In this document: positions 1 to 16,478 of the stretch, piece by piece
Layout: each line of letters starts with the position of its first letter
Numbering within the stretch: the stretch's first letter is position 1
Source: an uncultured virus (IMG/VR IMGVR_UViG_3300020403_000008)
Lineage: Duplodnaviria > Heunggongvirae > Uroviricota > Caudoviricetes > Crassvirales
Strand: one strand, 5' to 3'
Length of the DNA: 20,000 nt
IMG/VR virus record: IMGVR_UViG_3300020403_000008
The notes under the pieces: generated by a model
Told to the model about the DNA's origin: nothing
Database searches by the model: none
What the model saw: the letters and a program-made list of their open reading frames with translations, nothing else
Program-made: the position numbers and the translations under genes

Positions 1-174
1 AAACAAATTGCTTACTCTATATTATCCACTAAGTTCGGGGTTCAAGAATACATTGTCAGAAGATTTCAAAAAGAAGCGTTTGCTGCATTAAAAAACGCAA
101 GAATAAGATTGAACGATGTCAACCCTGTTGACCTTGTAAAAGCAATGAAAGGTCGAAACAAGTGGATTAAATAA
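1..174 (+). CDS. 3' end of a phage structural protein (probable tail tubular A/adaptor-ring protein), partial
   Basis: Frame 1 is open from base 1: KQIAYSILSTKFGVQEYIVRRFQKEAFAALKNARIRLNDVNPVDLVKAMKGRNKWIK*. Its TAA (172-174) overlaps the next ATG (TAATG). Identity is inferred from position directly upstream of the stabilization-type gene. Confidence 0.6.
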   Translation, partial: KQIAYSILSTKFGVQEYIVRRFQKEAFAALKNARIRLNDVNPVDLVKAMKGRNKWIK

Positions 175-3100: not shown

Positions 3101-4082
3101 TATATCACAAACTAAAAATGTATTAGGAACTATAACTCCTTATACAGGTGAGTTTGGTGTTGGATTGAACCCTGAAAGTGTTTGTAAATATGGAAACGTA
3201 ATATATTTTGCAGACACAAGTAGAGGTTTTGTGTTCAGACTGTCTAACGATGGACTGACTCAAATATCACAGTATGGTATGGCAAACTTCTTTAGAAGTG
3301 AATTACCAGTGCGTGATTTAAATAAAACTTTAGGTGGATACAATCCTAGAGACGGAGAGTATATTTTATCTTTACAAGGAGGAACAGAATCTACAGACAC
3401 TTTGTTGTGGGTTGGAGATGAATATTTCTGTGAACAAACATTTGTTGATGATGTAGTAGAATGGAGAGGTACAGAAGCTGTATGTCTTGTTTCTTGTTAT
3501 GGAGATTGGAAACCTTCTGACATAGTAAGCGATGGTCAAGATTGGAGAATTGACGAGTATTATTGTGAGCAAGAAGAGCAAAGACCAACACCAATACCAA
3601 TTCCTACACCATCACCAGTGCCTACACCAGTACCCGTGGCTGTGCCGTCTCCATCTCCAGTGCCAGTACCTGTACCAGTGCCAGTTGTTGCTCCTAACCC
3701 AACGCCTGCACCAGCACCTACACCAGCGCCTGTAGCGGATTTACCACCAGTACCAGCACCAACACCTACCCCGTCACCAACACCTGCCCCAGTACCAGCG
3801 CCAACACCTGCGCCTACACCTACTCCTACGCCAGCGCCTGCACCAACGCCTGTACCAACTCCAGCTCCAGCAGCGCCAACAGCGATGAGACTAAACCCAT
3901 GTAACCCATTTGGTGTTTACAACAAAGTAATACCTTATGACTCTAATCTGTCAGTTGGAACCGTGGTTACAATAGAAGACGGAAACTGTTATGCAGTTAG
4001 TGCTGCTATCACTGATACAGCGAACTCTACAGTGTCACAAGTTTTCTTAAATTGTTATAATTGTACTAATGGAATATTTTAA
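174..4082 (+). CDS. Tail tubular protein B / 'stabilization protein'-like, N-terminal part, with an appended Pro-rich stalk and Cys-containing terminal module
   Basis: 1302 aa. The N-terminus F..GKMNKDVDERLVPDGEYRDAENI and internal motifs WTDGLNPPRKI, FSYRYKYVDNQYSAISPFS, GNRLLYANY, YEVGIVYLDEYGR and GEFGVGLNPES are ones I recognise from Bacteroidota-phage stabilization proteins. The conserved part ends near LGGYNPRDGEYILSL (~3330-3374). W-x6-C repeats, about 100 aa of (X-P)n and a C...C...CxxC module follow. Confidence 0.75.
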   Translation: MRLRNTFIGGKMNKDVDERLVPDGEYRDAENIKVAMSNSSDVGALENVLSNKQKSFLDTGNNAETIGSAAVEYTNCVYWFVKSDTSSAVYEYNITTDLQRIILLDTRTGSDNVLNFSKENRINNVDTVVDTDNGKIFIFWTDGLNPPRKIEIDRAAEYGENNFTDEDISVIVKPPLHRPTFTLSATNTADENYIKDKFLQFSYRYKYVDNQYSAISPFSNPAFEPYPFKYNYGLNSNESFVNRYNVVNLTVNSGSHLVKEVEVLYKEAGKQNLYVVESYNKEKKTWDDNTEYVVTFQNKKISKILPESQIKRIFDAVPRKAFAQTFIGNRLLYANYTENWNLIDELGGEIKPDFTASVLTNEFATAPYTTMKAGRDYEVGIVYLDEYGRTTTVLTSDGNSVFVPNENALYQSKLQVEIRSKAPVWAKYFRFFIKESKMPYDIVIPTRFYVDGAYVWIELTGSDVNKIEKGTRLVVKADTSGPVKGYVETEVLDLQTQTVNFLEPDPTVAELEQKAGLYYKIRPKGFTFNNNAVELYEFESNHSTRDRRENMIDRGDKLQYFGEPIPYLSESTSLAGNSLSRSGTNIAPRDIRYKIIIDAVGDGITTYDEFRVEYTDNGVAYAQPAVTITGSSQTITNGLSVSFSSRSGHTVGDYWVVSGYGKEPLNFGNRDRSHALFRGEPGNEVIEAGSIVEIEYIESQKAGDGYSNSFTESYTSSSRYANLEEWYYGENLSGFGPGVTDAQVFFRHVNLTDDHGGEGKTAFKVQVQQNGTMCMIIQSKQRQWNERNANARVYTTGLLEIKSSDSLPIFETKAIEKDSDIFYEVGDTYELSDDNTFHIGKAGDVPQSFTSPATITIDAHNAWAWGNGYESIKIKDLFNNPTFVFDTRPSTFIESYRENNRVASLTYSGVYEQSTNFNALNEFNLSTANFKDIDDALGSIQKIVSRDNDIVVFQENKISKLLFNKNIIFNTDGSGNISQTKNVLGTITPYTGEFGVGLNPESVCKYGNVIYFADTSRGFVFRLSNDGLTQISQYGMANFFRSELPVRDLNKTLGGYNPRDGEYILSLQGGTESTDTLLWVGDEYFCEQTFVDDVVEWRGTEAVCLVSCYGDWKPSDIVSDGQDWRIDEYYCEQEEQRPTPIPIPTPSPVPTPVPVAVPSPSPVPVPVPVPVVAPNPTPAPAPTPAPVADLPPVPAPTPTPSPTPAPVPAPTPAPTPTPTPAPAPTPVPTPAPAAPTAMRLNPCNPFGVYNKVIPYDSNLSVGTVVTIEDGNCYAVSAAITDTANSTVSQVFLNCYNCTNGIF

Positions 4083-5867
4083 ATGAGCAATACAGGGAAA
4101 AAAATAGTAACAAGGTTAAGACTGTTCAAGGACGGTTTAGCAACTAGCAAGACAAAACCAAATGTCGAGGGAGATAAATATTATGTTGCTCCATTCGAAG
4201 ATTTGGTAGATTGCAACCCTCTTGGACCACCAGCTCCTATACCTACTCCTACACCTGCGCCAGTTGCTGTGCCAGCTACACCACCTGTGCCTACACCTAT
4301 TCCTGTAGCGGTGCCTACGCCTTCGCCTACGCCTACGCCTAGCCCATCGCCTATTCCTGCACCTGTGCCTAATCCTTCACCAAGTCCAACGCCAGCTCCA
4401 GTAGTTGTGCCTGTACCTGTGCCTAATCCTATTCCAACCCCTGCACCTGTACCAAGCCCTGTACCTACCCCTGCACCTGCTGTAGCACCAACCCCTGCAC
4501 CAGTAATGCCTACACCTGCTCCTGTACCTGCTGCACCAACACCTGTACCAACTCCAGCTCCTTCTCCAGTAAGCTCTACTTATCATGTTTGGTCAGCAAA
4601 TGCAATAAGTATTAGTCAAGGAATTTATAGTGGAGATGTTTCCATAAGTGATGCGGAGCAAACAATATTTGGTCCTATAGGTAGCGGATATGATTCAACG
4701 TTAGCTTTATATTTAAGTGACGATAATGGAAGCTTAGATTCAGTACAAGCTCTTATCGCTTCAGCTGATGCTGGCGGAACTATAACTGCGTACTTAAGCT
4801 TTAACGAGATTCTTCCAATACAAGTAAATCAGTCAGCTCCTTACTTTGCTATAAACGAAGTAGGCGCAGGCACACAAGCGAACATAAGAAGCGCACAGCT
4901 TGTAATTAAAATAGGTACAGACAGCACTTTACAAGTTATAAACGGTTCTGATATATATTATGAAGTAGACCCTCTTAACCCTGTACCTTCTCCAGTTGCA
5001 GCTCCAGTAGCATCAGATGTATGTTTGACTAATCCTGCTGCTGTAACAATACAAAGCATTGGAGGTGGCAATAAATATGTATTTGGAGGCACATACGGAA
5101 ATTATAAAACATCAGTTGGAACTTATGTCTTAACAGGCGTTCCTTCAAGTCATCCTATTGCAATACTTAATGACGGAAAACAAGCCTTCATAAGTTATAC
5201 AGGAACTGTAATGGCAGGTTCAAAAGGCATAAATAATGTTTATCACGACTACTATTATGGCGATATAACGATAACTGTAAACGGAGATTATGGAACAGTA
5301 AGTTATGATTGCTTGAATCATGGATACATGGGAGGACAAGATAACTTAACATACGATAATGTTACATGTTCAGCTCCTTCTCCAGTGCCAGTTGCACCTA
5401 CGCCAATCCCTGTAGGAGCACCTATAGCAGCTCCAGTAGTAGCACCAACACCAGCACCTACTCCTGCTCCAACACCAGCTCCAGCACCTGTTCCTGCTCC
5501 AGCTAGCCAAACTTATAGTTTACCACAAGGCTCAACTATTAATGTTCAAGGCATGTTTATGAACGGAACGCTTTGGTATTATTTTGGAACTTATGGTAGC
5601 GATAGCTATACGTTTACCGCAACCTCAGGAACATATACATTCAACGTTCCTCAATCACACCCTATTGCTTTCTATACAGCGGGAACAACAAACAGCTACA
5701 GTGGAGGTACGGTGCAAGGAACTAAGAACGGACAAGACGGAAATAGCTATGATTATAGATATGGAACAGTAACATTAACAATAAATGATACAAGCGCAAC
5801 ACCAGTGACTTATGAGTGTTATTTCCATGGTTACATGGGAGGATTAAACAATCTCATATTGGTATAA
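4083..5867 (+). CDS. Pro-rich modular putative virion appendage protein with two cupredoxin-like (HP...CxxHGYMGG) repeats
   Basis: 594 aa, starting immediately after the upstream TAA. It has the shared N-terminal NTGxK..LR..KPN..Y..P..D...C module, (X-P)n tracts, and two similar domains each containing SHPIA and YxCxxHGYMGG. Confidence 0.7.
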   Translation: MSNTGKKIVTRLRLFKDGLATSKTKPNVEGDKYYVAPFEDLVDCNPLGPPAPIPTPTPAPVAVPATPPVPTPIPVAVPTPSPTPTPSPSPIPAPVPNPSPSPTPAPVVVPVPVPNPIPTPAPVPSPVPTPAPAVAPTPAPVMPTPAPVPAAPTPVPTPAPSPVSSTYHVWSANAISISQGIYSGDVSISDAEQTIFGPIGSGYDSTLALYLSDDNGSLDSVQALIASADAGGTITAYLSFNEILPIQVNQSAPYFAINEVGAGTQANIRSAQLVIKIGTDSTLQVINGSDIYYEVDPLNPVPSPVAAPVASDVCLTNPAAVTIQSIGGGNKYVFGGTYGNYKTSVGTYVLTGVPSSHPIAILNDGKQAFISYTGTVMAGSKGINNVYHDYYYGDITITVNGDYGTVSYDCLNHGYMGGQDNLTYDNVTCSAPSPVPVAPTPIPVGAPIAAPVVAPTPAPTPAPTPAPAPVPAPASQTYSLPQGSTINVQGMFMNGTLWYYFGTYGSDSYTFTATSGTYTFNVPQSHPIAFYTAGTTNSYSGGTVQGTKNGQDGNSYDYRYGTVTLTINDTSATPVTYECYFHGYMGGLNNLILV

Positions 5868-5871
5868 CAAC

Positions 5872-5887
5872 TATCTTTGTATGATAT
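5872..5887 (+). promoter_or_regulatory. Putative Bacteroidota-type -7 promoter element (TATCTTTG) followed by TATGATAT
   Basis: TATCTTTG at 5872-5879 matches TAnnTTTG and lies in the gap before the ATG at 5891. No clear -33 TTTG was seen. Confidence 0.45.
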
Positions 5888-5890
5888 AAT

Positions 5891-6880
5891 ATGGCAAATA
5901 CAGGAAGAAAAATATTCACAACGATACGTCAATATGTAAATGGCGTTTGGAATGGTAACGAGAAGTTCAATAGCACTGACGACCCCGATTACCAATACCC
6001 TGTTTATGATGAAGCTGAGTGCCCACTACCAGCTCCTCCTGTACCTAGCCCTATACCAACCCCTAGCCCAATACCAACACCTAGTCCAGTGCCTGTTCCA
6101 GTGCCAGCAGTAGTGGAAGTAGCCCCTAATCCAGTGCCAAATCCAGCGCCAACTCCAACTCCTGCGCCTGTGCCTGTTGTTATTCCTACACCTGCACCAG
6201 TTCCGAATCCAACACCAGCGCCACAACCAGCGCCGACACCCGCTCCTGCCCCAGTACCAGCGCCTGTTCCTGCTCCTACTTCAAACCAGTATGTGGTTCT
6301 AGGACATGGAAACACTCCAGAATCTGCATGTAACGATACTTTAAATGATTTATTTTATATTGATGGAGGACAATTAGCTACATCAACAAATGTATATTAC
6401 GATGAATGGGGTAATACAAAATCGCAACCACAATATTTTGCTCAAGCTGGAGTTGTAAGATATTGGAATGGACAACAGTTTACATCTTACGCAAGTTGTA
6501 ACCAACCAACACCAGCACCGAATGCACCTACGCCAATACCAGTAGCAGCACCAACAGCTAATTGCGGAAGCAATACATATTACCTAAGCGAAGGTAAATT
6601 CTATGGTTCTTATTTCTGCCAATCACCTTTTGGAGGAATGGTTGGAGGAGGAGCGGCAACGACTTACCCAATAACTATGGCGGTTACATCGAACTATCCT
6701 GGAAGCGTAAATGCTCAACTAGGAGCTCAACTATGTTACAATGGACAACCTTTTTCTGGAAACGGCTTCCATTATTTAATGAGTACCTTCCCTAGTAGTT
6801 TTAATGGAACAGGAAGTCATTCGATGGTAGTAATTAATGATGACGGTATAGTTACCTCAGTTAAATATATGACTTGTTAA
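5891..6880 (+). CDS. Pro-rich modular putative virion appendage protein
   Basis: 329 aa: shared N-module, (X-P)n stalk, a [17 protein letters not shown] domain shared with 7808-9598, and a C-terminal YLS..LGAQ..INDDGI..C domain shared with 6882-7616. Confidence 0.7.
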   Translation: MANTGRKIFTTIRQYVNGVWNGNEKFNSTDDPDYQYPVYDEAECPLPAPPVPSPIPTPSPIPTPSPVPVPVPAVVEVAPNPVPNPAPTPTPAPVPVVIPTPAPVPNPTPAPQPAPTPAPAPVPAPVPAPTSNQYVVLGHGNTPESACNDTLNDLFYIDGGQLATSTNVYYDEWGNTKSQPQYFAQAGVVRYWNGQQFTSYASCNQPTPAPNAPTPIPVAAPTANCGSNTYYLSEGKFYGSYFCQSPFGGMVGGGAATTYPITMAVTSNYPGSVNAQLGAQLCYNGQPFSGNGFHYLMSTFPSSFNGTGSHSMVVINDDGIVTSVKYMTC

Positions 6881-6881
6881 T

Positions 6882-7616
6882 ATGGCAAATACAGGAAGTA
6901 AAATATATAGAACACTAAGGCTCATAAAAAATGGAGTTAGGACTGTGCACGTAAAACCAAACGTGCCAGAAGACCCTGACTTTATTCCTCCTTTTACAGA
7001 CTTAGCAGATTGCTATACTAATGCTCCTGCACCTGCGCCTGTTCCTGTTCCTACTCCTGCTCCAGTACCTAACCCCGTGCCAACTCCAGGACCTGCACCT
7101 TCGCCAGTTCCTGCTCCAAGTGCAATACCTCCAACCCCAGCACCAACTCCTGCGCCAGTCGCAGATGTTGTACCAACTCCTTCACCGACACCTGCGCCAG
7201 TAGTAAAAGTTCCTTCGCCAGTTGGAGGAGGTTCTACTTTCTACTTGAGTGCACCAAGACAAACATCTGGAGAGCTTTGTACAGCTGCATTCTCAATAGT
7301 TATGAGTGTACAAGTTACAGCTGCTACGGTTGCAACATCGTTAGGAGCACAAGTAACTAAAGGTGGAGCTAAGTTCCGTGGTAATAACAAATATTACGCA
7401 ATGGACAATTCAAATAATTATACAACACACTCAGGAACAACATGGTTGGCTGTGTTAATTAATAATGATGGTATTATACAAGATATAGTTTACGTAAAAT
7501 GTGGAGATTATGATGTAATGGATGGCACAGGATGGGATGCCCCAGACCCTTATAGCACGACACCACAAGATGACGGTGAGCTTGTTTATTATTATAAAGA
7601 TACAATGAATTTATAG
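6882..7616 (+). CDS. Pro-rich modular putative virion appendage protein
   Basis: 244 aa: shared N-module, (X-P)n stalk, a domain paralogous to the C-terminus of 5891-6880, and an acidic tail. Confidence 0.7.
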   Translation: MANTGSKIYRTLRLIKNGVRTVHVKPNVPEDPDFIPPFTDLADCYTNAPAPAPVPVPTPAPVPNPVPTPGPAPSPVPAPSAIPPTPAPTPAPVADVVPTPSPTPAPVVKVPSPVGGGSTFYLSAPRQTSGELCTAAFSIVMSVQVTAATVATSLGAQVTKGGAKFRGNNKYYAMDNSNNYTTHSGTTWLAVLINNDGIIQDIVYVKCGDYDVMDGTGWDAPDPYSTTPQDDGELVYYYKDTMNL

Positions 7617-7618
7617 AT

Positions 7619-7801
7619 ATGAATTTTACAGGGAAAAAATATTATACAAAATTAAGAAAGTTCGTAAATGGAAAACCAACACAAGATGTGAAGGAAAACA
7701 TAATTACGGACCCAGATTATATAAAACCTTATGATGATATAAATGGATGCCCAAAAGGCACGTCTTCGCCTGCACCAGTTGCAGCGCCAACGACATATTA
7801 A
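7619..7801 (+). CDS. Small protein consisting almost solely of the shared N-terminal module
   Basis: 60 aa MNFTGKKYYTKLRKFVNG...KENIITDPDYIKPYDDINGCP plus SSPAPVAAPTTY. It fits exactly between its neighbours. Confidence 0.7.
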   Translation: MNFTGKKYYTKLRKFVNGKPTQDVKENIITDPDYIKPYDDINGCPKGTSSPAPVAAPTTY

Positions 7802-7807
7802 TTAATT

Positions 7808-9598
7808 ATGGGAGAGAAGTACAGTAAAATAAGAAAATATGTAAATGGCTTTCCAAGAAAAGATGAAGCCGTCAATAGCCCTAACGAGCCTGGGTACATT
7901 CCACCTGTATATGATGCAGGTCCATGTACTACATGTGAGCCAGAGGAAGATGGTGACATTATTGAATGGAGAGGTCATTCTTTTTACTGTGAGCAAGAAG
8001 ATGCTCCCACGCCCACTCCTAGCCCAACTCCTAGTCCTACGCCTAGTCCGACACCTAGTCCTACGCCTACGCCAACACCTACCCCTACACCGACTCCAAC
8101 ACCTAGTCCTAGTCCAGTCCCTGTACCAGCACCTAGTCCAATACCTGCCCCAGCGCCAATACCAGCTCCTTCTGTAGGATATGTATATTATACTGTTAAC
8201 GATTGTGCAAACACTTTTAATGATATTGTAAGAAGCACTTTTTCTCTTTCAACAGGAACTGTTGTAAAAGCCACAGGATTAAGTGGTTGTTTAGAAATAG
8301 GAAATTTAACACAGCCATCAGGCACAAACACTGTATATGAGGAATATACTGATTGTACTGATTGTGGCGCAACAACTCCTACTCCAACACCTAGCCCAAC
8401 ACCTACACCAACACCAGCGCCAGCTCCAATTCCAACGCCAGCGCCTGTGCCTAACCCAACCCCTGCGCCTACACCAGCACCTACTGTTACACCTGTAGTG
8501 CCTACTCCTGTACCTCAACCAACTCCAACGCCTGCGCCTACGCCAGCTCCAACACCTGCGCCAATACCAACGCCAGCACCTACACCAATTCCTAATCCGT
8601 CTCCAACTCCTGCTCCAGCAGCAACACCTTGCTATGAGTTTACTATTGGAAATGATGGAGACCCATTAGAAGACGATTCGTTCACATACAGATTATGTGG
8701 CGGAGGAAATTCATCAGGTTCAATACCATTTGGAGACCAAATCACTGTTTGTGCCGAGTCTTTCTCTCACATAGGAACTTCTCTAACTGTAACAAACACA
8801 TTAGTCCCTTGTTCTGGAAGCCCTGTACCTAGTCCAGTAGCACCTAATCCTGTGCCAACACCAGCACCCACACCAGCACCAGCTGCTACACTTTACTATG
8901 TTGCTTTAGGTAACGGAAACAGCGCTTCATCTGCTTGTAACGATACCTTAAACGACTACTTCTACATAGATAGTGGACAATTAGCTACTGCTAGCGGAAT
9001 ATATTATGATGCTGCGGGTCAGAACCCTGCGCAAGACACGCACTATACGGATGGAAATGGATTCTATGTTGTTTGGAATGGTTCGTCTATCACAAACCTA
9101 CAGTCTTGTCCTTCAGGACCTGCTCCAACAGCTCCTAATCCAGTATATACACCACCTACACCTAACCCTGTATATACACCACCTTCTCCATCACCTGTAG
9201 CGCCTACACCTAATCCTGTAGCACCTACGCCTAATCCTGTAGCACCTACACCTAATCCTGTAGCGCCAACACCTAACCCTGTAGCGCCAACACCTAATCC
9301 TGTGGCTCCCACGCCTACACCAGCGCCAGCACCAACTCCTACACCTGCACCGCAGCCAGTAGCTCCGCAGCCTGTACCGACACCAGCACCATCTTCTACG
9401 CCTGCATACAGAGTTGAAGTTCAAAAGCAAAGTGGAGTCACTTACATGATATTCACATATACTGATTCGTACGGAAACTCTCAGTACAAAAACAGTATGA
9501 ACTCTTATGAATATGTTTGTGCTCAAAACGGTAATATTCAACCTCAGTCAGGAGTACAAGGGTACCAGAACCTATACACAAGTTGTGTTGGTTCGTAA
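7808..9598 (+). CDS. Pro-rich multi-module putative virion appendage protein
   Basis: 596 aa: divergent N-module, a [11 protein letters not shown] motif, and four (X-P)n tracts separating four small Cys-containing domains. Confidence 0.7.
8018..8065 (+). repeat. 12-bp coding tandem repeat (PSPT x4)
   Basis: cctagcccaact cctagtcctacg cctagtccgaca cctagtcctacg. Confidence 0.8.
9134..9319 (+). repeat. Coding tandem repeats: 27-bp x2 (PNPVYTPP[T/S]) then 21-bp x~6 (PVAPTPN)
   Basis: 27-mers at 9134 and 9161. 21-mers cctgtagcNccWacRcctaaY at 9194, 9215, 9236, 9257 and 9278, with a degenerate copy at 9299. Confidence 0.85.
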
Positions 9599-9607
9599 AA
9601 AAATTAT

Positions 9608-9623
9608 TAACTTAGTATGATAT
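9608..9623 (+). promoter_or_regulatory. Putative promoter element upstream of the enzyme block (TAACTTAG-TATGATAT)
   Basis: One mismatch to TAnnTTTG. It is followed by the same TATGATAT as the 5872 site and lies in the largest intergenic gap (9599-9642). Confidence 0.35.
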
Positions 9624-9642
9624 TAAAATATAATACAATCAA

Positions 9643-10908
9643 ATGTTCTCAGAAATACCAAATTTTCTCACTCATGATGAGTGCGATTTATTTATACAAT
9701 TAATAGAAAAACAAAACACCCGTTCACAAGTTGCTGGAAGCGGAAGTGATAATTCAAAAATAGAAGATAGTAGGACTTCTTACACTTCTAATTTTGGCGA
9801 AGAAATGTTACTTCCAAAAGCTCTAAAAGAAAGAATTGCAGCTCATTTAGACTTAGATGTTGTAAGAGGTGAAACCTTGCAAGGTCAAAAATACGAAGTA
9901 GGTCAATATTTTAGACCACATCTAGATTGGTTTCAAGGTGATGCATATAACAACCATTGTTTGCATTCTGGAAACAGAACTCACACTTTCATGTTATATC
10001 TAAATGATGATTTTGAAGGTGGAGGTACTGATTTTCCAAACTTAGGTAAAACTGTAAAGCCAGAGAAAGGAAAAGCTGTATTCTGGCGTAACATGGATGA
10101 TAACGGAAACGGTATATCTGATGTTATGCATGAAGGTATGGATGTGACGAAAGGAACTAAATATATAGTTACAAGTTGGTGGAGAGAAAAAGAATTTAAT
10201 GGCGCTGAGAACACAAGGCTTGCAAATGAATTTCATGAAGCACAAAGAAAAGAAAAAGAGTCTAAGGTTGTAAATATTAATTCAGGCACACAAACATTTA
10301 AAACTGTAGATGAGATACCTAGATTTACAGAAAATGGATTTATGAAGGCTAAGGTTCCTCAAGATGTGTGGGGCTTAATTCAGGACTCATACCACTTATT
10401 AAAAGATAAGGAGGTTGCAGAAAAATTTTCAGGAAAAGAAGGCATTATAGATACAATAGTTACTGATGCCGAAAGCAGCACTATTTTAAGTTTTGAGCAT
10501 ATACCAAACATTAGAACTCAAATACATAAAATGTTAATGCCACTACATGAGGAGTGGGCAAAAACAAGGCTAGAACCATCTTTTGTGTATGGTATAAGGT
10601 CTTATCAAAGAGGAGCTACGTTAGCGAAACACGTTGACAGGATAGCGACTCATCACATATCTACTATTATTATTGTAGACAAAGATTTAAAGTGTGGTTG
10701 TCAAACAAAAGAGTTTGGTGATGATTGGGCTTTAGATATACAGGGTCATGACGGAGAGTGGTATGAAGTTTTTGCAGAACCAGGAGAAATGATTTTATAT
10801 GAATCTGCTGTCTGTGAACATGGTAGAAGTAAACCTTTTCAAGGAACAAGCTTCAAGAACTTTTATACACACTACAAGTTAGTTGATTACCAGTATGCGG
10901 GACAATAA
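9643..10908 (+). CDS. Tandem 2OG-Fe(II) dioxygenase: prolyl 4-hydroxylase-like domain plus a second dioxygenase domain
   Basis: Domain 1 has IPNFLTHDEC, RTS, ETLQGQKYEVGQYFRPHLDWF (H93-x-D95), NRTHTFMLYLND..EGGGTDFP, VKPEKGKAVFW, H163 and GTKY (K173), the canonical P4Hc layout. Domain 2 has YGIRSYQRGATLAKHVD (H330-x-D332) and PGEMILYES..CEHGR (H393). Confidence 0.88.
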   Translation: MFSEIPNFLTHDECDLFIQLIEKQNTRSQVAGSGSDNSKIEDSRTSYTSNFGEEMLLPKALKERIAAHLDLDVVRGETLQGQKYEVGQYFRPHLDWFQGDAYNNHCLHSGNRTHTFMLYLNDDFEGGGTDFPNLGKTVKPEKGKAVFWRNMDDNGNGISDVMHEGMDVTKGTKYIVTSWWREKEFNGAENTRLANEFHEAQRKEKESKVVNINSGTQTFKTVDEIPRFTENGFMKAKVPQDVWGLIQDSYHLLKDKEVAEKFSGKEGIIDTIVTDAESSTILSFEHIPNIRTQIHKMLMPLHEEWAKTRLEPSFVYGIRSYQRGATLAKHVDRIATHHISTIIIVDKDLKCGCQTKEFGDDWALDIQGHDGEWYEVFAEPGEMILYESAVCEHGRSKPFQGTSFKNFYTHYKLVDYQYAGQ

Positions 10909-13465
10909 ATATATTTCTTTTGACCCGTGGTGGGGTGGTTTCTCTAACATAAGAATGACGTATGAATTAGTAGGAGCTTTATCTGTTATAACTGGTAGAA
11001 CAATAATTTTACCTCACAGAATATATTGTTTGTTTTTATCAGAATGGCAAGATAAAAAAACATGGTTTGACATGTTTGATGCTTTAGATAAAAAAAAATT
11101 CAGAAAGCATTTTGATTGTATAGAATATTATGACATTCCAGAATATGAAAATCTTGAAAACGATGCGCAATATTTCGAAAATGTTTCGTCTATTGCGAAA
11201 GTTATTACTTTTGGCGACAAAGACGGAAAACTAGGTCCTATGAAAGGTCCTGATAATGATTATGTCTTAACATGTGGCATAGAGGACCAAAGCGAGTTTG
11301 ATGTTTTTAAAGGCGACAGACAAGTTATAGACTTAGAGTGTGATGATAAATTTATACACTTCCCTAGAAACTTGTTTGGTCATTTTTATTACCATGTTTA
11401 TGGTAAAACACCTATTATTAGAAACAGGATTAAAGAAAAAGTAAACTTAGGTATACAATACAAACCTGATATTTTTGATAAAGCCAAACAAATAACAGAC
11501 AAATTAGGAACATTTAATGCTATTCATGTTAGAAGAAATGATTTTCTGCAAGTAAGAAAAGATATTGCAGAAGCTCAAACTAATAATCTTTTAGATGACA
11601 TTTCTGACAGAGTGCCTAACGACAAACCACTATTTATAGCAACAGACGAAAAAGACAAGTCTGTGTTTTTGCCATTAAAAAAAAGATACAATGTATTATA
11701 CCTTACTGATTTTCCACAATCAGGAGTAAATGATACAGATGATTTGCTTTTAGACCAAGTTGTATGCTCTCAAGCAGATATATTTTTAGGCAGTCATTTA
11801 TCTACTTTTTCTGACTATGTAAACATTATTAGAGGTCAGCAAAACAAAAAAGATTTTCATAGAGAAGGCACTAATTTTAACAGACCCAAGTTATCATATA
11901 ATAGGTTTCCATGGGAAGTGGAAGAATATGGATGGGATAAAACCTGGAGCTTTCACTGGGAATATGAGCAATCATACTTTAACATAGCCGTATATGGGTC
12001 TCACAACGCTTCTGTTGCATTATCTTATAAAGCTGATGTTCTTGAGGTGGTAGAGCTAGAAAGGTTTGTAAACAAAAAAAATGCAGCGTTTTATTTCCAT
12101 TTTCCAGAAGAAAATCCAGATGAATTAACCCTACAGATACATAATTATTTTGTAAAAAAATATGGTAGCTACGTGTATGATAATTGCTTATATAATAGCT
12201 GTGTAACTAACATAAATGTTTTGCCTGCTAAAAACTTTGAGTGGGTAGGTCATCACCTTGCTCATGTCAATAATGTTATATTTCAATCTCCAGCAACAAA
12301 AAGCTTGAATATATCTTTTGATGGGGGTTCTGATGAAGGACATTTTAATATATATAGGACTGAATCAGATAAGTTGCCGCAAAAAATATTTTCTACAAAA
12401 CAAGATATATGCGTTCCTTATGCTGCCGTAGCGCACTACCTATCTCCAATAAAACAAGAAGAAAACTGGTGGTGGGGCAACTTAGTGTACGCAGGAAAAC
12501 TTATGGGGTTATCTGCCTACGGTACAGTTAATCAGGATGATTACGACAAAATGTATCGTTATTTTAAGATGCAACAAACAGACAACGTAAACACAGCACA
12601 TGAAAACTTTCAAAGAGTATTTAATGTAACTCCTGAAAAAAGATTTAACGAAAAAGAATCTTATGATTTAGCTGCTGCTACACAAAAAGTTTTTGAAGAT
12701 ATATTTAAAGAAATTGTAGAGCCTTTTGTAGAAACACATAAAGATTATGAATTACAATTTAGTGGAGGTGGCGCTCTAAACGTAATAAACAATGCTAAGT
12801 GGGATGCTTTTGTTAGTCCTAATCCTGATGACAGGGGACTGTCTGTTGGCATGTTGTTCCATAAAATAAAACCTGGTCACGTTGTTGACACAAAGTATTT
12901 AGGTTCAGATATGTTTGGCTTATATACTCAATATAAACCTTACAGTATTGATGAAATGTGTGAGGATTTAGTAGAAGGTAAAATTATTGGTTTGTGCCAA
13001 GGACGTGGAGAGCACGGAGCAAGAGCGTTATGTAACAGAAGTATTTTATGTTTACCTAAAGAGGGTTTCAAAGAAAAACTTAATGACCAAGTAAAACATA
13101 GAGAGGCTTTCAGACCTTTCGCACCTGTATGTCGAAAGGAGGACGCTAACACGTGGTTTGATTTTGGAAAGTACACCGAATATATGAGTCACAACGCTAT
13201 AGTTAAAAATGTAAATAAAAGTATACAATCTATAATTCACAAAGATTATACCGCTAGGCTGCAAACAGTCACCTCGTCATCAAATCCTTTTATTTATTTA
13301 CTCTTGACTAGAATGAAGGAATTAGGTCATGACCCAATACTAATTAATACATCATTTAATGTAATGGGAAAACCTATAATAAACCAGTGGGAAGAAGCTA
13401 TAAGTATGCTAAATGACACTGGATTAGATGTATTAACGGACGGTAAAAACAAAATATATGGATAG
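10895..13465 (+). CDS. Fusion: O-fucosyltransferase-like GT-B domain + NodU/CmcH/TobZ-family O-carbamoyltransferase
   Basis: The N-domain has GGFSNIRM...GRTIILP, AIHVRRNDF, LFIATDE and DQVVCSQADIFLGSHLSTFS (POFUT/O-FucT motifs). From ~11978 come SHNAS, ELERF, HHLAH, SFDGG, GKLMGLSAYG, SGGGALN, GARALCNRSIL, KHREAFRPFAP, TARLQTV and NTSFN. ATG 10895 is preferred over the TTG at 10883 used in the ORF track. Confidence 0.88.
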   Translation: MRDNKYISFDPWWGGFSNIRMTYELVGALSVITGRTIILPHRIYCLFLSEWQDKKTWFDMFDALDKKKFRKHFDCIEYYDIPEYENLENDAQYFENVSSIAKVITFGDKDGKLGPMKGPDNDYVLTCGIEDQSEFDVFKGDRQVIDLECDDKFIHFPRNLFGHFYYHVYGKTPIIRNRIKEKVNLGIQYKPDIFDKAKQITDKLGTFNAIHVRRNDFLQVRKDIAEAQTNNLLDDISDRVPNDKPLFIATDEKDKSVFLPLKKRYNVLYLTDFPQSGVNDTDDLLLDQVVCSQADIFLGSHLSTFSDYVNIIRGQQNKKDFHREGTNFNRPKLSYNRFPWEVEEYGWDKTWSFHWEYEQSYFNIAVYGSHNASVALSYKADVLEVVELERFVNKKNAAFYFHFPEENPDELTLQIHNYFVKKYGSYVYDNCLYNSCVTNINVLPAKNFEWVGHHLAHVNNVIFQSPATKSLNISFDGGSDEGHFNIYRTESDKLPQKIFSTKQDICVPYAAVAHYLSPIKQEENWWWGNLVYAGKLMGLSAYGTVNQDDYDKMYRYFKMQQTDNVNTAHENFQRVFNVTPEKRFNEKESYDLAAATQKVFEDIFKEIVEPFVETHKDYELQFSGGGALNVINNAKWDAFVSPNPDDRGLSVGMLFHKIKPGHVVDTKYLGSDMFGLYTQYKPYSIDEMCEDLVEGKIIGLCQGRGEHGARALCNRSILCLPKEGFKEKLNDQVKHREAFRPFAPVCRKEDANTWFDFGKYTEYMSHNAIVKNVNKSIQSIIHKDYTARLQTVTSSSNPFIYLLLTRMKELGHDPILINTSFNVMGKPIINQWEEAISMLNDTGLDVLTDGKNKIYG

Positions 13466-14312
13466 AATATTTTTAAGCATAGCATCATACAGAGACCCAG
13501 ACTTAATAAACACAATAAAAGACGCACACAAAAGAGCTGACAACCCTGACAGAGTAACATTTGGAATATTGTTTCAAGGCACTAAAGAAGAGATTAACAA
13601 TTTTCTTTCACAAGCTGTAGGAAAAATCAACATTAAGTTTGTACATCATAAAGAAACAAAAGGAACGGGGTGGGCAAGAAACATTCTTACAAGAGATATG
13701 TTGCAAGATGAAGAGTATTGGTTACAAATAGATTCACACACAAGATTTATAAATGGATGGGACACGAAGCTTATCGACTTCTACAACAAGATAGGAGAAG
13801 ATTGTTTGGTTTCAGCATATCCCCCACACTTTGGAATGAATGAGTCTTATGATGTATACACAACTAAAACAGTGAATAACAGAGCATTAGTAGAGGGATT
13901 TACTGATGTCTTTAGCTTTGAAAACACAGTAGGAAAAGTTCCTGTAGAAGAATATGAAGATTCAATAACAGCCGCTGGAGCTTTTCAATTTGCAAAAAGA
14001 CATGTAGCTAAGGCGCTGACATTTGATGCGTACTTTAATCCTTGGATGGACCAAGAAATATCTTCTTGCCTAGCGTGGATGAATGGATATAATATTTATG
14101 CGCCTAGAGATGCTGTTTTGTGGCACTGCTATGAAGATAATCATATAGGCTCTGATGAAAAATGGAGAGGTTTAGTTGCTGACGAAGTAAAAGTAACTGG
14201 TTATGAAGACAAGCCATTTGACATTATAAAGCACTGGCACACAAAAAGGAATTGGAACCAATGGAAGGATAGGGTTCTTGTAGATATTAATGATTTAAAA
14301 AACGAACAATGA
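13458..14312 (+). CDS. GT60 / Gnt1-like polypeptide (hydroxyproline or Thr/Ser) GlcNAc-transferase
   Basis: IFLSIASYRDP, KGTGWARN, EEYWLQIDSHTRF..GWD..LI (DSH motif), SAYPP and GYNIYAP...LWHCY match the Skp1-HyPro GlcNAc-transferase family pattern. There is no signal anchor. Confidence 0.82.
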   Translation: MDRIFLSIASYRDPDLINTIKDAHKRADNPDRVTFGILFQGTKEEINNFLSQAVGKINIKFVHHKETKGTGWARNILTRDMLQDEEYWLQIDSHTRFINGWDTKLIDFYNKIGEDCLVSAYPPHFGMNESYDVYTTKTVNNRALVEGFTDVFSFENTVGKVPVEEYEDSITAAGAFQFAKRHVAKALTFDAYFNPWMDQEISSCLAWMNGYNIYAPRDAVLWHCYEDNHIGSDEKWRGLVADEVKVTGYEDKPFDIIKHWHTKRNWNQWKDRVLVDINDLKNEQ

Positions 14313-15292
14313 AGACAGCTTTAGTTTTAGGTGGTGGAGGTTTTATAGGCTCACACCTTGTTAAAAGATTAAAAGAAGAAGGCTACTATGTTAGAGCAGT
14401 AGACTTAAAAAAACCTGAATTTTGGAAAACAGCAGCAGACGACTTTATTATAGGAGATTTGAGGTGGAGTCATATATGCTCTGCCGCATTTAGACCTTTA
14501 GAAGACAAAAGAAGGTTTGATGAAGTTTATCAGCTTGCTGCTGATATGGGTGGCGCTGGTTATCTGTTTACTGGTGATAGTGATGCAGATATTATGCACA
14601 ACTCTGCCTTAATAAACCTGAATGTGTTAAGAGAGTGTGTTCTTGAAGAGCATGCTCCTAAAAAAATATTCTATGCAAGTAGCGCCTGTGTGTATCCAGA
14701 GTACAATCAACTGGACCCAGAAAGCCCAAAATGTACAGAAGACAGTGTATATCCTGCTGAACCTGACTCTGAATATGGATGGGAAAAATTGTTTAGTGAG
14801 AGAATGTATATGGCTTTTGCAAGAAATAAAAACTTAAATGTAAGGATAGGGAGATTTCATGGAATCTTTGGACCATACGGAACATGGAATGACGGAAAAG
14901 AAAAAGCCCCTGCTGCAATATGCAGAAAGGTTGCGGAGTCAAACGATAGCATAGATATATGGGGAGACGGAGAGCAAACAAGGTCTTTTATGTATATAGA
15001 CGATGCTATTGACACAGTGCGTAAATTTATGATGAATGAAGGATTTCAAGGACCAATGAATATAGGTTCTGAAGAAATGGTGTCTATAAATAACTATGCA
15101 CGCATAGTAATGGAAGTTGCAAAAAAAGATTTGGATATTGTGCACATAGAAGGTCCTCAAGGTGTGAGAGGAAGAAACTCAGACAACACATTAATGGAGC
15201 AAGAATTGAACTGGACTCCAGGGGGTAGTCTTAGAGATGGTGTACAAAAAACGTACAAGTGGATTGAAGAGCAGGTGCAAAAACTGTCTTAG
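14309..15292 (+). CDS. GDP-mannose 3,5-epimerase-like NAD-dependent epimerase (extended SDR)
   Basis: GGGGFIG, QLAADMGGAG, YASSACVYP, YGWEK (YxxxK), EKAPAAICRK, WGDGEQTRSF and GPQGVRGRNSDN. ATGA overlap with the upstream gene. Confidence 0.88.
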   Translation: MKTALVLGGGGFIGSHLVKRLKEEGYYVRAVDLKKPEFWKTAADDFIIGDLRWSHICSAAFRPLEDKRRFDEVYQLAADMGGAGYLFTGDSDADIMHNSALINLNVLRECVLEEHAPKKIFYASSACVYPEYNQLDPESPKCTEDSVYPAEPDSEYGWEKLFSERMYMAFARNKNLNVRIGRFHGIFGPYGTWNDGKEKAPAAICRKVAESNDSIDIWGDGEQTRSFMYIDDAIDTVRKFMMNEGFQGPMNIGSEEMVSINNYARIVMEVAKKDLDIVHIEGPQGVRGRNSDNTLMEQELNWTPGGSLRDGVQKTYKWIEEQVQKLS

Positions 15293-15313: not shown

Positions 15314-16054
15314 ATGGCAAACTACGAGAACAAGACAGTTGGGTTTAGTGAAATAAATAAAGGCTGGACGTCATTTTATTCTTACATTCCTGAAGATATG
15401 GTCTACATGAAGTCAGACTTTTATACTTTTAAGGGCGGTAATATATACAAACACAACATTGATGAGAGTTCTCGTAACAAATTTTACGATAAATTTTATC
15501 CTAGTAAGGTTGAAACCATCATAAACGATGACCCAGAAGCTGTCAAAAATTTTAGAACTCTCAACATGGAAGGCTCTTCTGCTTTCTGGAGAGTAGAAAT
15601 AAACACAGACTTAGATAAAGGCGGAGCGACTTATGATGATTTTGAAGAAAGAGAGCGATTGTTTAAGGCTCACATAAGAACCGACAGAGACGACAATCTT
15701 AACTTGGAAAGACTTACCGTGCAAGGATTAGGTACATTAATATCTACAAACGGCACGTCAATGTATTTTAGATTTATAGATAACGCCATTGAGTATGGTG
15801 ACTTCGTTTATAAAATATATGGTAACTCGTATACGTATTTAGGTAAAATTATTGCTGTATTTGAAGATTATATTATGTTAGACTCTATAGCGGACCCAGT
15901 AGAACTTGGTCAATTTTGCTTTGCAACAAAAGACCCAGTGATAGAAAGCTATGGACTAAAAGGATATTTTGGTAGCTTTACGTGTACAAGTTATGAATCA
16001 ACTCCAATAGAATTGTTTGCAGTTGGTACAGAAGTAACGCAAAGCAGTAAATAA
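15314..16054 (+). CDS. Separately encoded C-terminal part of the tail tubular B / stabilization protein
   Basis: 246 aa beginning KTVGFSEINKGWTSFYSYIPE..FYTFKGGNIYKHN...RNKFY...KNFRTLNMEG and ending ESYGLKGYF...ELFAVGTEV..SS. I recognise these as the usual C-terminal motifs of this protein family. Confidence 0.7.
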   Translation: MANYENKTVGFSEINKGWTSFYSYIPEDMVYMKSDFYTFKGGNIYKHNIDESSRNKFYDKFYPSKVETIINDDPEAVKNFRTLNMEGSSAFWRVEINTDLDKGGATYDDFEERERLFKAHIRTDRDDNLNLERLTVQGLGTLISTNGTSMYFRFIDNAIEYGDFVYKIYGNSYTYLGKIIAVFEDYIMLDSIADPVELGQFCFATKDPVIESYGLKGYFGSFTCTSYESTPIELFAVGTEVTQSSK

Positions 16055-16058
16055 TTTA

Positions 16059-16478
16059 ATGAAATTTAAATTAAGAAGGCTAGTAGAATCAGATTACGAT
16101 ACTCTAGTAAAATGGTGGAAAGATTGGAAGTGGGAACCTGCTCCAAGAGATTTTCTGCCTGAAAATGGAACAGGTGGCTTTATGGTCACCAAAGATAAAA
16201 AAGAGATATGTGCAGGTTTTATATACCTGACTAACTCTAAAGTTGCTTGGATTGAATTTGTAATATCAAACAAGCAATATAAAGAAAAGGATAGAAAAGA
16301 TGCTATCCAATTTTTAATAAACAGCTTATCTGCTGTAGCTCAAGAAACAGGAGCAAAATATGGATACGCTGTATTAAAACATAAGGGACTGAAGTTTTAT
16401 TATGAAAACTCAGGTTTTTTTGAAAGTGATAAGAACATAACAGAAATGATAACAGTATGGCAGCAGCAACAACAGTAG
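16059..16478 (+). CDS. GNAT-fold acetyltransferase-like phage protein
   Basis: 139 aa with LRRLVESDY, ICAGFIY, AWIEFVISNKQY and FYYENSGF. Its position between tail tube and ejection genes is usual for podoviruses. Confidence 0.65.
   Translation: MKFKLRRLVESDYDTLVKWWKDWKWEPAPRDFLPENGTGGFMVTKDKKEICAGFIYLTNSKVAWIEFVISNKQYKEKDRKDAIQFLINSLSAVAQETGAKYGYAVLKHKGLKFYYENSGFFESDKNITEMITVWQQQQQ

Follow-up and report, generated by a model that had tools for sequence, protein, structure and literature searches.

Gene organisation of the locus

The stretch of DNA analysed here (the window, 20,000 nucleotides) comes from an uncultured marine podophage and represents its tail (muzzle) module. The phage is related to Pachyviridae, a family whose cultured members infect Flavobacteriia. 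The muzzle gene of this Pachyviridae-like phage is split by an 11.2-kb island, which contains five fibre-like proteins and one truncated copy, followed by four overlapping enzyme genes (Table 1). The two muzzle ORFs, 11.2 kb apart, score 68.6 bits on the Pfam crAss_MUZ profile and 46.5 bits on crAss_MUZ_C, against a cut-off of 27. Since they flank the block of proline-rich (XP) proteins and enzymes, this block lies inside the tail module. An earlier note on this DNA had placed four overlapping enzyme genes directly after the XP ORFs in the tail module, and both the coordinates and the muzzle matches agree with it.

In relatives, the C-terminal part of the muzzle is encoded directly behind the N-terminal part or is fused with it. 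In Cellulophaga phage phi18:3, gp115 (the C-terminal part) adjoins gp114, a homologue of the N-terminal part that is annotated in its record as a virion structural protein (MS/MS proteomics); in Elemovirus, the crAss_MUZ_C match is found at the C-terminal end of gp22. Neither an island nor Pro-rich tracts were found in phi18:3 and Elemovirus.

All XP ORFs are on the same strand, and the enzyme genes follow directly downstream in the same orientation, with successive overlaps of 14-26, 8 and 4 nt. The second enzyme ORF starts with TTG; the ATG of its relatives corresponds to position 10895. The XP proteins and the enzymes are apparently co-expressed from a single string of co-oriented, overlapping late genes.

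Table 1. Features of the muzzle module and its island (positions in the window)
Feature	Position	Strand	Basis or content
Muzzle protein, N-terminal part, 1302 aa	174..4082	+	crAss_MUZ 4.3e-19 (Pfam); phrog_14478 1e-257
XP-stalk protein 1, 594 aa	4083..5867	+	ORF call, tract scan
XP-stalk protein 2, 329 aa	5891..6880	+	Common N-terminal motif; tracts of 98 and 16 aa
XP-stalk protein 3, 244 aa	6882..7616	+	Common N-terminal motif, 78-aa tract, C-terminal globular domain
Truncated paralogue, 60 aa	7619..7801	+	N-terminal motif, first tract residues, then stop
XP-stalk protein 4, 596 aa, 134 Pro	7808..9598	+	Four tracts: 55, 84, 25 and 98 aa
Two-domain 2OG/Fe(II) oxygenase, 421 aa	9643..10908	+	Pfam 2OG-FeII_Oxy_3 2.3e-17; PDB matches; structure model
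POFUT-like glycosyltransferase (aa 10-314) fused to O-carbamoyltransferase (aa ~370-855)	10883..13465	+	Pfam, PDB, PHROG
PF11397 (GT60-type) GT-A glycosyltransferase, 284 aa	13458..14312	+	Pfam GlcNAc 2.5e-33
GDP-mannose 3,5-epimerase (GME), 327 aa	14309..15292	+	PDB GME entries 2.9e-88 to 5.3e-87
Muzzle protein, C-terminal part, 246 aa	15314..16054	+	Pfam crAss_MUZ_C 5e-12

The proline-rich tracts

The five large ORFs, the N-terminal part of the muzzle included, were scanned for tracts in 20-aa windows with a threshold of 30% Pro or more. The tracts comprise 738 residues, with A (14%), T (13%), V (11.5%) and S (5%) beside the Pro residues (44%). The earlier note had described six consecutive XP-tract proteins with hundreds of prolines in total. 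The first count is right if the 60-aa truncated paralogue is added to the five large proteins, and the second is borne out by 324 Pro in the tracts and 405 over the whole length of the five large ORFs. The tracts consist of degenerate tandem repeats, with period lengths between 6 and 54 nt, the most regular being a repeat of 21 nt in 5.9 copies at 9194-9317, in XP-stalk protein 4. This tandem-repeat character is far beyond chance.

The paralogous XP-stalk proteins have in common an N-terminal motif of about 45 aa. In XP-stalk protein 1, this is followed by two tracts, of 126 and 50 aa, each with a globular repeat behind it; the protein matched no Pfam or PHROG family, and a weak GLEYA match (0.0028) is under the cut-off. 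In XP-stalk protein 4, the tracts alternate with small Cys-flanked domains. The N-terminal muzzle protein itself carries a 108-aa (X-Pro)n tract near its C terminus (nt 3585-3908), followed by a final 57-aa domain that contains Cys. Judged by their position only, the XP proteins are putative virion parts.

The two-domain oxygenase

The oxygenase has two domains: residues 1-195 (the N domain) form a collagen/algal-type prolyl 4-hydroxylase (P4H), and residues 226-421 (the C domain) a PhyH-like oxygenase, which has an HxD...H triad of its own. The P4H family had been recognised in the earlier note, which missed the fusion to a second oxygenase domain. The protein scores 64.2 bits on the PF13640 profile (cut-off 27), and all nine of its PDB sequence matches are prolyl 4-hydroxylases (best 3.3e-23). 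In the structure model (pLDDT 89), the fold of the N domain is nearest to Cr-P4H-1 (Z 22.8, rmsd 1.6 over 169 aa), with scores of 21.3 for chlorovirus PBCV-1 vCPH (5c5t) and 20.1 for C-P4H-II. PHD2 (Z 16.0), a Dictyostelium PHD (6t8m, 15.8) and NgTET1 (11.8) score lower. As modelled, the N domain is thus closer to the C-P4H-type than to the PHD/PhyA-type fold. For the C domain, HalB scores Z 14.7.

Residues H93, D95, H163 and K173 of the N domain and H330, D332 and H393 of the C domain are invariant in 12 sequences, and the iron triad and the 2OG-binding Lys line up with the HYD, H and K positions of the Bacillus anthracis P4H. Both Cr-P4H-1 and vCPH act on (X-Pro)n peptides. IMG/VR contains at least 364 relatives of the oxygenase; the fused two-domain form was found in none of 50,697 cultured-phage records.

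Glycosyltransferases, carbamoyltransferase and epimerase

The second enzyme matches the Pfam families O-FucT (PF10250; 2e-18, 67.6-71.3 bits against a cut-off of 31.5), Carbam_trans_N (1.3e-16, 61.4 bits) and Carbam_trans_C (2.9e-50, 170.6 bits), as well as phrog_1601 (3e-94). In the PDB, its glycosyltransferase (GT) domain matches POFUT2 (3.4e-5), and its carbamoyltransferase matches NovN (1e-31), TobZ (5e-25) and also GdmN. Assignment of the carbamoyltransferase as a NodU equivalog was rejected (110 bits, cut-off 1000); it is a member of the NodU/CmcH/TobZ family but not NodU itself.

The third enzyme scores 116.4 bits (cut-off 21) on PF11397, which we take to correspond to GT60/Gnt1. Its DxH motif (D92-S93-H94) is invariant in 17 sequences. 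When its model (pLDDT 88) was compared with solved structures, the best 29 VIA rows were all polypeptide GalNAc-transferases (Z 18.1-20.8), with about 250-260 of the 284 aa aligned at a sequence identity of only 9-15%. COLGALT1 is among the top Foldseek matches, and no solved GT60 chain was matched in the sequence and profile searches.

The last enzyme aligns with GME over its full length (residues 6-325), while the next family, UXS, appears at 1e-22. It is encoded beside a GT of the GDP-fucose family and is the likely source of GDP-L-galactose. GME and L-galactose are typically plant or algal. Thus, the family calls of the earlier note are upheld, by HMM searches for all four enzymes and by the PDB and structural matches. 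A profile search found no HPAT-like (hydroxyproline O-arabinosyltransferase) domain in the window.

Association of oxygenase and tracts in related phages

The sequence features, family memberships and intact catalytic motifs at this locus are established, and so is the gene-neighbourhood association across phages. In a set of 100 distinct muzzle sequences, all 38 muzzle-type phages with the oxygenase have Pro-rich tract ORFs, compared to one of the 44 that lack it. Where 1.5 kb or more of upstream sequence is available, every muzzle-type locus (42 of 42) has a tract ORF ending no more than 3 kb upstream of the oxygenase, mostly 12-60 nt from it; the same is true of five of six other loci without a GT. 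The co-occurrence of enzymes and XP-rich ORFs, suggested as a check when the locus was first described, is therefore strongly positive in the muzzle phage family. In one complete relative (69,291 bp), 850 of 885 tract residues are located in five ORFs directly upstream of the enzymes. In phages with the oxygenase, the core muzzle ORFs (N and C) contain tracts as well.

The number of events behind this pattern is small. The muzzle tree has only three changes of oxygenase state, giving two to three independent pairs (sign test p 0.5), so that co-transfer of one island of fibres and enzymes could yield the split. A different picture is seen in myovirus-type cassettes, which have an HPAT-like domain and sit among replication genes. 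Upstream tract ORFs at a distance of up to 3 kb were found in only 2 of these 12, and L022 and L033 have none. An enzyme block away from Pro-rich ORFs, which the earlier note had named as an observation against its proposal, does therefore occur. Five of the myovirus-type contigs were checked and are 13-31% complete, so the missing upstream ORFs do not decide the matter.

The glycosyltransferases vary among the relatives. Among the 67 distinct oxygenase loci with 1.5 kb or more of downstream sequence, 63 have at least one GT. GTs of the HPAT family replace or supplement the window-type enzymes, and a profile built from them matches 37 ORFs. In five loci, the GT directly after the oxygenase is above the cut-off (23.9 bits) of the Pfam HPAT family PF23452, with 43.4 bits in L073 and 24.8-33.3 bits in L242, L197, L249 and L225. 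Plant HPAT enzymes glycosylate hydroxyproline (Hyp), and the family is known to act only on Hyp. In eight distinct loci (e.g., L184 and L234), the oxygenase is accompanied by a FucT-like GT alone. Fusions of the FucT-GT60-HPAT and FucT-carbamoyltransferase type also occur and tie these enzymes into one pathway.

In seven loci of a single lineage (L044, L045, L053, L067, L080, L081 and L088), a GT60-type gene is found beside TP tracts rich in Thr, and no P4H lies within 10 kb. Thus, the GT60-type enzyme need not use Hyp. Together with the loci where the FucT-like GT is alone, this means that either GT could be the protein-linking one. The earlier proposal that GT60 acts first on Hyp, followed by an L-sugar, gains no support from these comparisons. 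Its broader idea of Hyp glycosylation gained from the HPAT-family GTs right after the hydroxylase.

Proposed modification of the tail stalks

Hydroxylation and O-glycosylation of the XP stalks is the best reading of these sequences, and we regard it as probable. Because the hydroxylase and the sugar-adding enzymes adjoin the XP fibre genes, the phage probably puts a plant-like sugar coat on its own tail proteins. Within this reading we infer every chemical step, the acceptor residues, the identities and order of the sugars, and the virion location of the XP proteins. Modification would take place in the cytoplasm, before virion assembly. The N domain of the oxygenase would hydroxylate prolines of the XP tracts, that of the muzzle included, and the POFUT-like GT, the GT60/ppGalNAcT-like GT or both would attach sugars to the tracts. 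Thr and Ser are possible acceptors. The sugars would probably include L-galactose, taken from the GDP-L-Gal that the phage's own epimerase would provide. The fused carbamoyltransferase may then O-carbamoylate a sugar hydroxyl, and the PhyH-like domain may perform a further oxidation. The predicted products are stiff, protease-resistant, extensin/AGP-like glycoprotein stalks on the virion. The further suggestion in the earlier note, a glycan mimicry recognised by Bacteroidota glycan-uptake systems, is speculative.

Polypeptide GalNAc-transferases and Thr-specific GT60 enzymes glycosylate Thr and Ser directly, and the phage GTs might do the same in a mucin-type manner; Hyp would then only stiffen a polyproline-II stalk, or the P4H would act elsewhere. 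We consider this unlikely, although the fold of the GT60-type enzyme is closest to the mucin ppGalNAc-Ts, the FucT-like domain resembles POFUT2, a Ser/Thr O-fucosyltransferase, and the GT60-type gene adjoins Thr-rich tracts in the seven loci without P4H. The window tracts do have 137 Thr and Ser residues, but these make up only 18.6% of the total, and there are long runs without either (e.g., PVPVPVPVPV). Moreover, 48 of 53 oxygenase loci have a ratio of Thr plus Ser to Pro of less than 0.8, in contrast to 0.95-1.38 in all seven GT60 loci without P4H, and HPAT-family GTs are found directly behind the oxygenase in many relatives.

It is less probable still that the XP tracts are plain tail-fibre linkers, that the enzymes remodel host surface polysaccharide or LPS, a host protein or a small molecule, and that the two share one variable island by co-travel. 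This would fit the 10 of 12 myovirus-type cassettes without a nearby tract ORF, the two to three events in muzzle phages, and the glycan or antibiotic pathways that NodU/TobZ-type carbamoyltransferases and GME normally serve. It would also fit a passage in a chlorovirus review, which cites unpublished amino-acid analysis that reportedly detected no Hyp in PBCV-1 particles despite their encoded P4H. On the other hand, the P4H and GT families and folds have characterised members that act on polypeptides, a tract ORF ends 12-60 nt before the oxygenase in most of the 42 muzzle-type loci, tracts are found in core muzzle ORFs of phages with the oxygenase, 43 of 44 muzzle-type phages without the oxygenase also lack tracts, and HPAT-family GTs are present in the relatives' cassettes.

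DNA hypermodification, by base hydroxylation followed by glycosylation and carbamoylation, has a precedent in phages that combine TET/JBP-type 2OG oxygenases with GTs on DNA and a sub-threshold TAGT (TET-associated GT) match in one relative's GT fusion (1.7e-4; 22 bits against a cut-off of 27.5), but is very improbable given the collagen-type N domain (Z 22.8, against 11.8 for NgTET1), the lack of any TET/JBP family match to Pfam in the window, the polypeptide-GT type of GT fold and the position of the genes within a late structural string.

Comparison with known glycosylation systems

In the hydroxylation and O-glycosylation reading, the closest known system is that of plant and green-algal hydroxyproline-rich glycoproteins (HRGPs), where a P4H is followed by HPAT/GT95 and further GTs on extensin or AGP motifs. 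Similar to these, the phage has a collagen/algal-type P4H, with Cr-P4H-1 as its best structural match, and Pro-rich glycomodule-like tracts beside it. These are of the non-contiguous X-Pro type, where X is A, T, S or V, as in AGP-type glycomodules. Phage relatives also have HPAT-family GTs after the oxygenase. The settings differ, since HRGPs are made in the ER and Golgi, whereas the phage system would operate in the cytoplasm of an infected bacterium. In addition, the window has no HPAT (GT95, PF23452), its P4H is fused to a second oxygenase, and a carbamoyltransferase is present.

The earlier note had pointed to the Skp1 pathway of Dictyostelium and Toxoplasma, where the P4H PhyA is followed by the GT60 enzyme Gnt1 and further GTs. 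The likeness lies in the cytoplasmic logic without signal peptides, in the P4H gene beside a PF11397/GT60-type GT, and in a PF03407 GT in one phage relative, a family that presumably includes GT77 enzymes such as AgtA. However, the phage P4H is not PhyA/PHD-like (6t8m Z 15.8, compared to 22.8 for Cr-P4H-1), and its putative targets are hundreds of repeat prolines rather than one residue. No Skp1-like ORF was found in the window among the listed ORFs or by Pfam. Given a collagen/algal-type P4H, the HRGP pathway is the closer analogue.

Other systems have single features in common with the phage. Chlorovirus PBCV-1 encodes a collagen-type P4H, vCPH (A085R; 5c5t Z 21.3, sequence match 1.2e-15), which is reportedly active on (X-Pro)-type viral repeats, but PBCV-1 has a eukaryotic host and its P4H is not in an operon with GTs. 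Mucin-type O-glycosylation (GT27) offers the best structural match for the window GT60-type enzyme, a DxH motif and Pro/Thr-rich tandem-repeat acceptors, yet the phage enzyme is only 9-15% identical, has no lectin domain and belongs to PF11397. Mycobacteriophage GTs are reported to glycosylate the phages' own virion proteins, likewise in the cytoplasm, but on C-terminal extensions of the capsid and tail tube and with no hydroxylase. The hydroxylase-then-GT logic on repeats recalls collagen hydroxylysine glycosylation (LH3/PLOD, COLGALT1) and the mimivirus lysyl hydroxylase. Further links are the COLGALT1 match, a PLOD GT domain in a related cassette (L026, 3.8e-21) and the score of the mimivirus enzyme (6ax6, Z 13.5). 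Only 1 of the 738 tract residues is Lys; therefore, Lys is not the target in this phage.

Taken across the relatives, it is plausible, with slightly less than even confidence, that phages make plant-like hydroxyproline-rich glycoproteins by means of a two-headed, phage-restricted oxygenase and interchangeable GT sets acting on Hyp, here with carbamoylated L-galactose. The sets would be HPAT-like, GT60, POFUT-like and GT32-like, each with its own nucleotide-sugar enzymes.

Implications

Hyp O-glycosylation is regarded as a eukaryotic trait (plants, algae and some protists), and we know of no bacterial virus for which a plant-like sugar coat on its own tail proteins has been shown. Literature searches found no description of a phage Hyp-glycosylation system. 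If the proposed reading is true, Hyp O-glycosylation would be seen for the first time outside eukaryotes and their giant viruses, and phages of marine Flavobacteriia would extend the chemistry of phage virions by a new post-translational modification. The abundant 2OG/'P4H' genes of marine phages, usually classed as auxiliary metabolic genes, would also gain a concrete substrate. Finally, a single oxygenase, together with one or two soluble GTs and a sugar epimerase, would be a small set of cytoplasmic tools for producing Hyp-glycosylated polyproline rods in bacteria.

Gene Organisation within the Muzzle Region

The enzyme block of the window does lie next to proteins with (X-Pro)n stretches (XP tracts). 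A 44-nt gap separates the tract ORFs from four enzyme genes, each of which overlaps the next, so the run of tract proteins followed by overlapping enzyme genes that the earlier note described stands as written. All large ORFs are on the plus strand, and the block is flanked by the two parts of a muzzle protein. In phi18:3, gp114 and gp115, the homologues of the two muzzle parts, lie side by side, and its record lists both as structural (MS/MS proteomics); in Elemovirus, the 246-aa ORF matches the C-terminal end of a single ORF, gp22. Therefore, 4083-15292 represents an 11.2-kb island within the muzzle gene region. The site between the muzzle N and C parts looks like a cargo hot spot across this phage family. 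A 139-aa ORF (16059-16478, phrog_17252) is kept right after the C part in relatives with and without the island.

Among cultured phages, protein comparison brings the window closest to Cellulophaga phages of the Pachyviridae (the 246-aa ORF is about 32% identical) and to Flavobacterium Elemovirus phages; no near DNA match to the window was found among 50,697 cultured-phage records. A promoter and terminator scan of the window gave counts at shuffle level and is therefore uninformative.

Features of the muzzle region and its island in the window
Feature	Coordinates (nt)	Strand	Remarks
Muzzle N part	174-4082	+	Pfam crAss_MUZ, phrog_14478
XP tract of muzzle ORF	3585-3908	+	108 aa, at ORF end
Four more tract ORFs	4083-5867, 5891-6880, 6882-7616, 7808-9598	+	nine tracts together
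Truncated copy	7619-7801	+	60 aa, same N-terminal motif as the four tract ORFs
Two-domain oxygenase	9643-10908	+	
O-FucT (PF10250) fused to O-carbamoyltransferase	10883-13465	+	NodU/TobZ/NovN-type
GT60-type glycosyltransferase (GT)	13458-14312	+	PF11397, 116 bits, invariant DxH
GDP-mannose 3,5-epimerase (GME)	14309-15292	+	2.9e-88 to 5.3e-87, full length; next family 1e-22
Muzzle C part	15314-16054	+	crAss_MUZ_C, 246 aa

The XP-Tract Proteins

The tracts of the window comprise 738 residues, of which 324 are proline, with A at 14%, T at 13%, V at 11.5%, S at 5%, and a single lysine. They are encoded by degenerate repeats with periods of 6-54 nt, and a search of the nearest record with the XP-tract pattern returned only the window's own tracts. 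Over the tract-rich ORFs at 8001-9000, GC content reaches 0.48 and GC skew drops to -0.33, while the enzyme genes have a GC content of 0.31-0.36; the shift is due to CCN codons and is by itself no sign of foreign origin.

A motif of about 45 aa at the N-terminus is common to the four tract ORFs beyond the muzzle N part. Their globular domains match no Pfam family (only a sub-threshold GLEYA), and a PDB search with them gave nothing below E 0.3. The one Atlas lead was Copper-bind (score 0.88, 17% of a cluster). ORF 4083-5867 has two repeats (aa about 300-431 and 482-594), each with a conserved S-H-P-I-A ... C-x2-H-G-Y-M-G-G motif, which is also present in a related locus (L017:11424-13298). Judged by this H...C-x2-H-x2-M pattern, one idea is that the repeats may recall a type-1 copper (cupredoxin) site.

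The Two-Domain Oxygenase

The earlier note called this gene a prolyl 4-hydroxylase (P4H), and structural comparison agrees. With residues 1-195, all nine matches in a PDB sequence search were P4Hs (best 3.3e-23). In the model (pLDDT 89), this domain is nearest to Chlamydomonas P4H-1 (Z 22.8, rmsd 1.6 over 169 aa), followed by chlorovirus vCPH (21.3), P4H-TM, human C-P4H-II and B. anthracis P4H, with PHD/PhyA-type enzymes scoring about 16. Twelve homologues keep the HxD...H triad and the 2OG-binding lysine without exception.

A second domain, residues 226-421, also has the double-stranded beta-helix fold of 2OG oxygenases and carries a separate, likewise invariant, H330-x-D332...H393. Its nearest neighbours are PhyH-like enzymes: HalB (Z 14.7), then AviO1, EvdO2, HygX, CurA halogenase and EctD. 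Pfam assigned no family to this domain alone, and the PHROG label 'ferrochelatase' was dropped given the 2OG-oxygenase fold.

Some cassettes end in a 182-183-aa ORF (L017:10819-11370, L022:9689-10237, L215:16538-17086, L249:10819-11370) that the window lacks. Its sub-threshold PhyH matches (0.002 in L017, 0.00084 in L215) hint at a third oxygenase, a small one.

Sugar Enzymes and Glycosyltransferase Sets

The remaining enzyme assignments of the earlier note, namely a FucT-carbamoyltransferase, a GT60 enzyme and a GDP-sugar epimerase, are all confirmed by domain and family matches (see the table), the last more precisely as GME. The likeness of the O-FucT domain to POFUT2 is weak. GME would fit well as a source of GDP-L-galactose next to a GT of the GDP-L-fucose family, because L-galactose is 6-hydroxy-L-fucose. 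Sequence and profile searches of the PDB with the GT60-type protein found nothing significant (best a ppGalNAc-T, E 0.18). By fold (model pLDDT 88; VIA search), the best 29 rows are all polypeptide GalNAc-transferases (Z 18.1-20.8), with generic GT-A enzymes at 17 or below, and Foldseek also places the collagen galactosyltransferase COLGALT1 near the top. Gnt1 is absent among the matches listed, which proves nothing.

At least one GT accompanies the oxygenase in 63 of 67 distinct loci with at least 1.5 kb of downstream sequence, in varying combinations.

Glycosyltransferase sets in distinct oxygenase loci (67 in all)
Set	Loci
FucT + GT60 (the window's type)	15
HPAT-like only	14
FucT + GT60 + HPAT-like	12
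GT32-like only	12
FucT only	8
GT60 only	1
GT32-like + GT60	1
No GT (three MAG contigs and L218)	4

Assignment to the hydroxyproline O-arabinosyltransferases (HPATs) is based on Pfam PF23452 above cut-off in five separate proteins; the window has no HPAT domain. To our knowledge, PF23452 is known only as a family of plant HPATs. Each cassette has its own sugar-nucleotide enzymes, e.g., GME, a GDP-mannose-dehydratase-like SDR, DegT with GNAT, or UDP-galactopyranose mutase. The HPAT-FucT-GT60 and FucT-carbamoyltransferase gene fusions link the enzymes as one pathway. The earlier note had GT60 acting first on hydroxyproline (Hyp); since there are cassettes with FucT only (e.g., L184 and L234) and one without GT60 (L187), this order is not supported, and the protein-linking GT may be either FucT or GT60.

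An expanded cassette is found beside RNR and DNA-polymerase genes in large myovirus-type phages (L026:6869-16713, L029, L047, L070, L073, L084-L086). The L026-type cassette encodes the oxygenase, an HPAT-FucT-GT60 triple fusion, a second GT60, DUF5672, a methyltransferase, a PLOD-type GT, GT17-like or PF03407 GTs, up to two carbamoyltransferases, GME and UDP-Galp mutase. In one muzzle-type phage, a radical SAM/SPASM protein (L229:11146-12054) lies between the oxygenase and the GT60-type gene, which suggests further modification of the same tracts.

Co-occurrence of Tracts and Enzymes

One relative, complete at 69,291 bp and with terminal repeats, has a GT that is 90% identical; of its 885 tract residues, 850 fall in the five ORFs that immediately precede the enzymes. 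For a wider comparison, loci were collected around three anchors (the muzzle protein, the GT and the oxygenase) and combined. Among 100 distinct muzzle sequences, 38 had the oxygenase, 44 with both muzzle halves seen did not, and 18 were undecidable. Tract ORFs, counted as present from 40 tract residues upwards, occurred in 38/38 muzzle-type phages with the oxygenase versus 1/44 without; in an earlier count, the lone oxygenase-free exception came from an unrelated giant ORF with a stretch of 64 residues. In phages with the oxygenase, the core muzzle ORFs, N and C, contain tracts as well. The oxygenase state changes only three times on a muzzle tree built with FastTree, a method that easily joins long branches; this leaves two to three independent pairs, all in the same direction (sign test p 0.5).

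The oxygenase loci number 105, with 74 distinct sequences. Where at least 1.5 kb of upstream sequence was present, a tract ORF ended within 3 kb upstream of the oxygenase in 42/42 muzzle-type loci, mostly 12-60 nt away, and in 5/6 loci of another type without the window-type GT, but in only 2/12 myovirus-type loci and 0/2 others. As they stand, the myovirus-type loci present the case that the earlier note had named as refuting, enzymes without proline-rich ORFs. An XP-tract pattern search of five myovirus-type records covered contigs each only 13-31% complete, so absence there is uninformative and tract substrates may be located elsewhere.

Hydroxyproline or Threonine as the Possible Acceptor

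GT60-type enzymes do not need Hyp, as seven loci of a separate phage lineage (L044, L045, L053, L067, L080, L081, L088) have a GT60-type gene and UDP-Galf mutase just behind tail-fibre ORFs whose TP tracts are rich in Thr, while P4H is absent within 10 kb. Six of them (L080 apart) encode, around position 10001, a 417-aa GT60-type protein and further GT-like ORFs, and look like a candidate mucin-type virion glycosylation system. The (T+S)/P ratio is 0.95-1.38 in the seven loci; it is below 0.8 in 48/53 oxygenase-bearing loci (median 0.53, window 0.42). These ratios would fit a change of acceptor, Thr being replaced by Hyp in the presence of P4H, but with so few lineages they are only suggestive.

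Distribution and Relation to Known Pathways

Relatives in IMG/VR number at least 364 for the oxygenase and at least 587 for the GT. Among cultured-phage records, 10 match the oxygenase, none over 80% of it, so the fused form is absent there; the GT has only four matches, all partial and in jumbo phages. In bacteria (one genome per species, 185,579 species), only four loci were found, all on short MAG contigs. In two Bacteroidota/Saprospiraceae MAG contigs (L174:328-1512, L176:1-792), the two-domain oxygenase follows, after 141-214 nt, the gene of a protein that has a Pro/Thr/Ser-rich tract, a hydrophobic segment at the N-terminus and, at the C-terminus, a domain resembling a type-9 secretion sorting domain. 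These contigs may represent a cellular (or binned phage) form of the system, one that has no GT in the vicinity.

A full-text literature search, whose coverage excludes most subscription journals, found no description of phage Hyp glycosylation. In the portions of the literature it returned, phage P4H-like genes appear only as EGLN3 structural look-alikes or as AMGs 'for overcoming oxidative stress'. A chlorovirus review lists a 1999 paper on the viral P4H as well as an unpublished analysis in which PBCV-1 particles contained no Hyp; the latter calls for caution.

Hydroxylation and glycosylation of the XP stalks, the central idea of the earlier note, is the best-supported reading, and we consider it moderately probable. 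Judging by the fold of the P4H domain, the plant and algal hydroxyproline-rich glycoprotein pathway is a closer analogue of the phage system than the Skp1 pathway; the phage system would be a member of neither.
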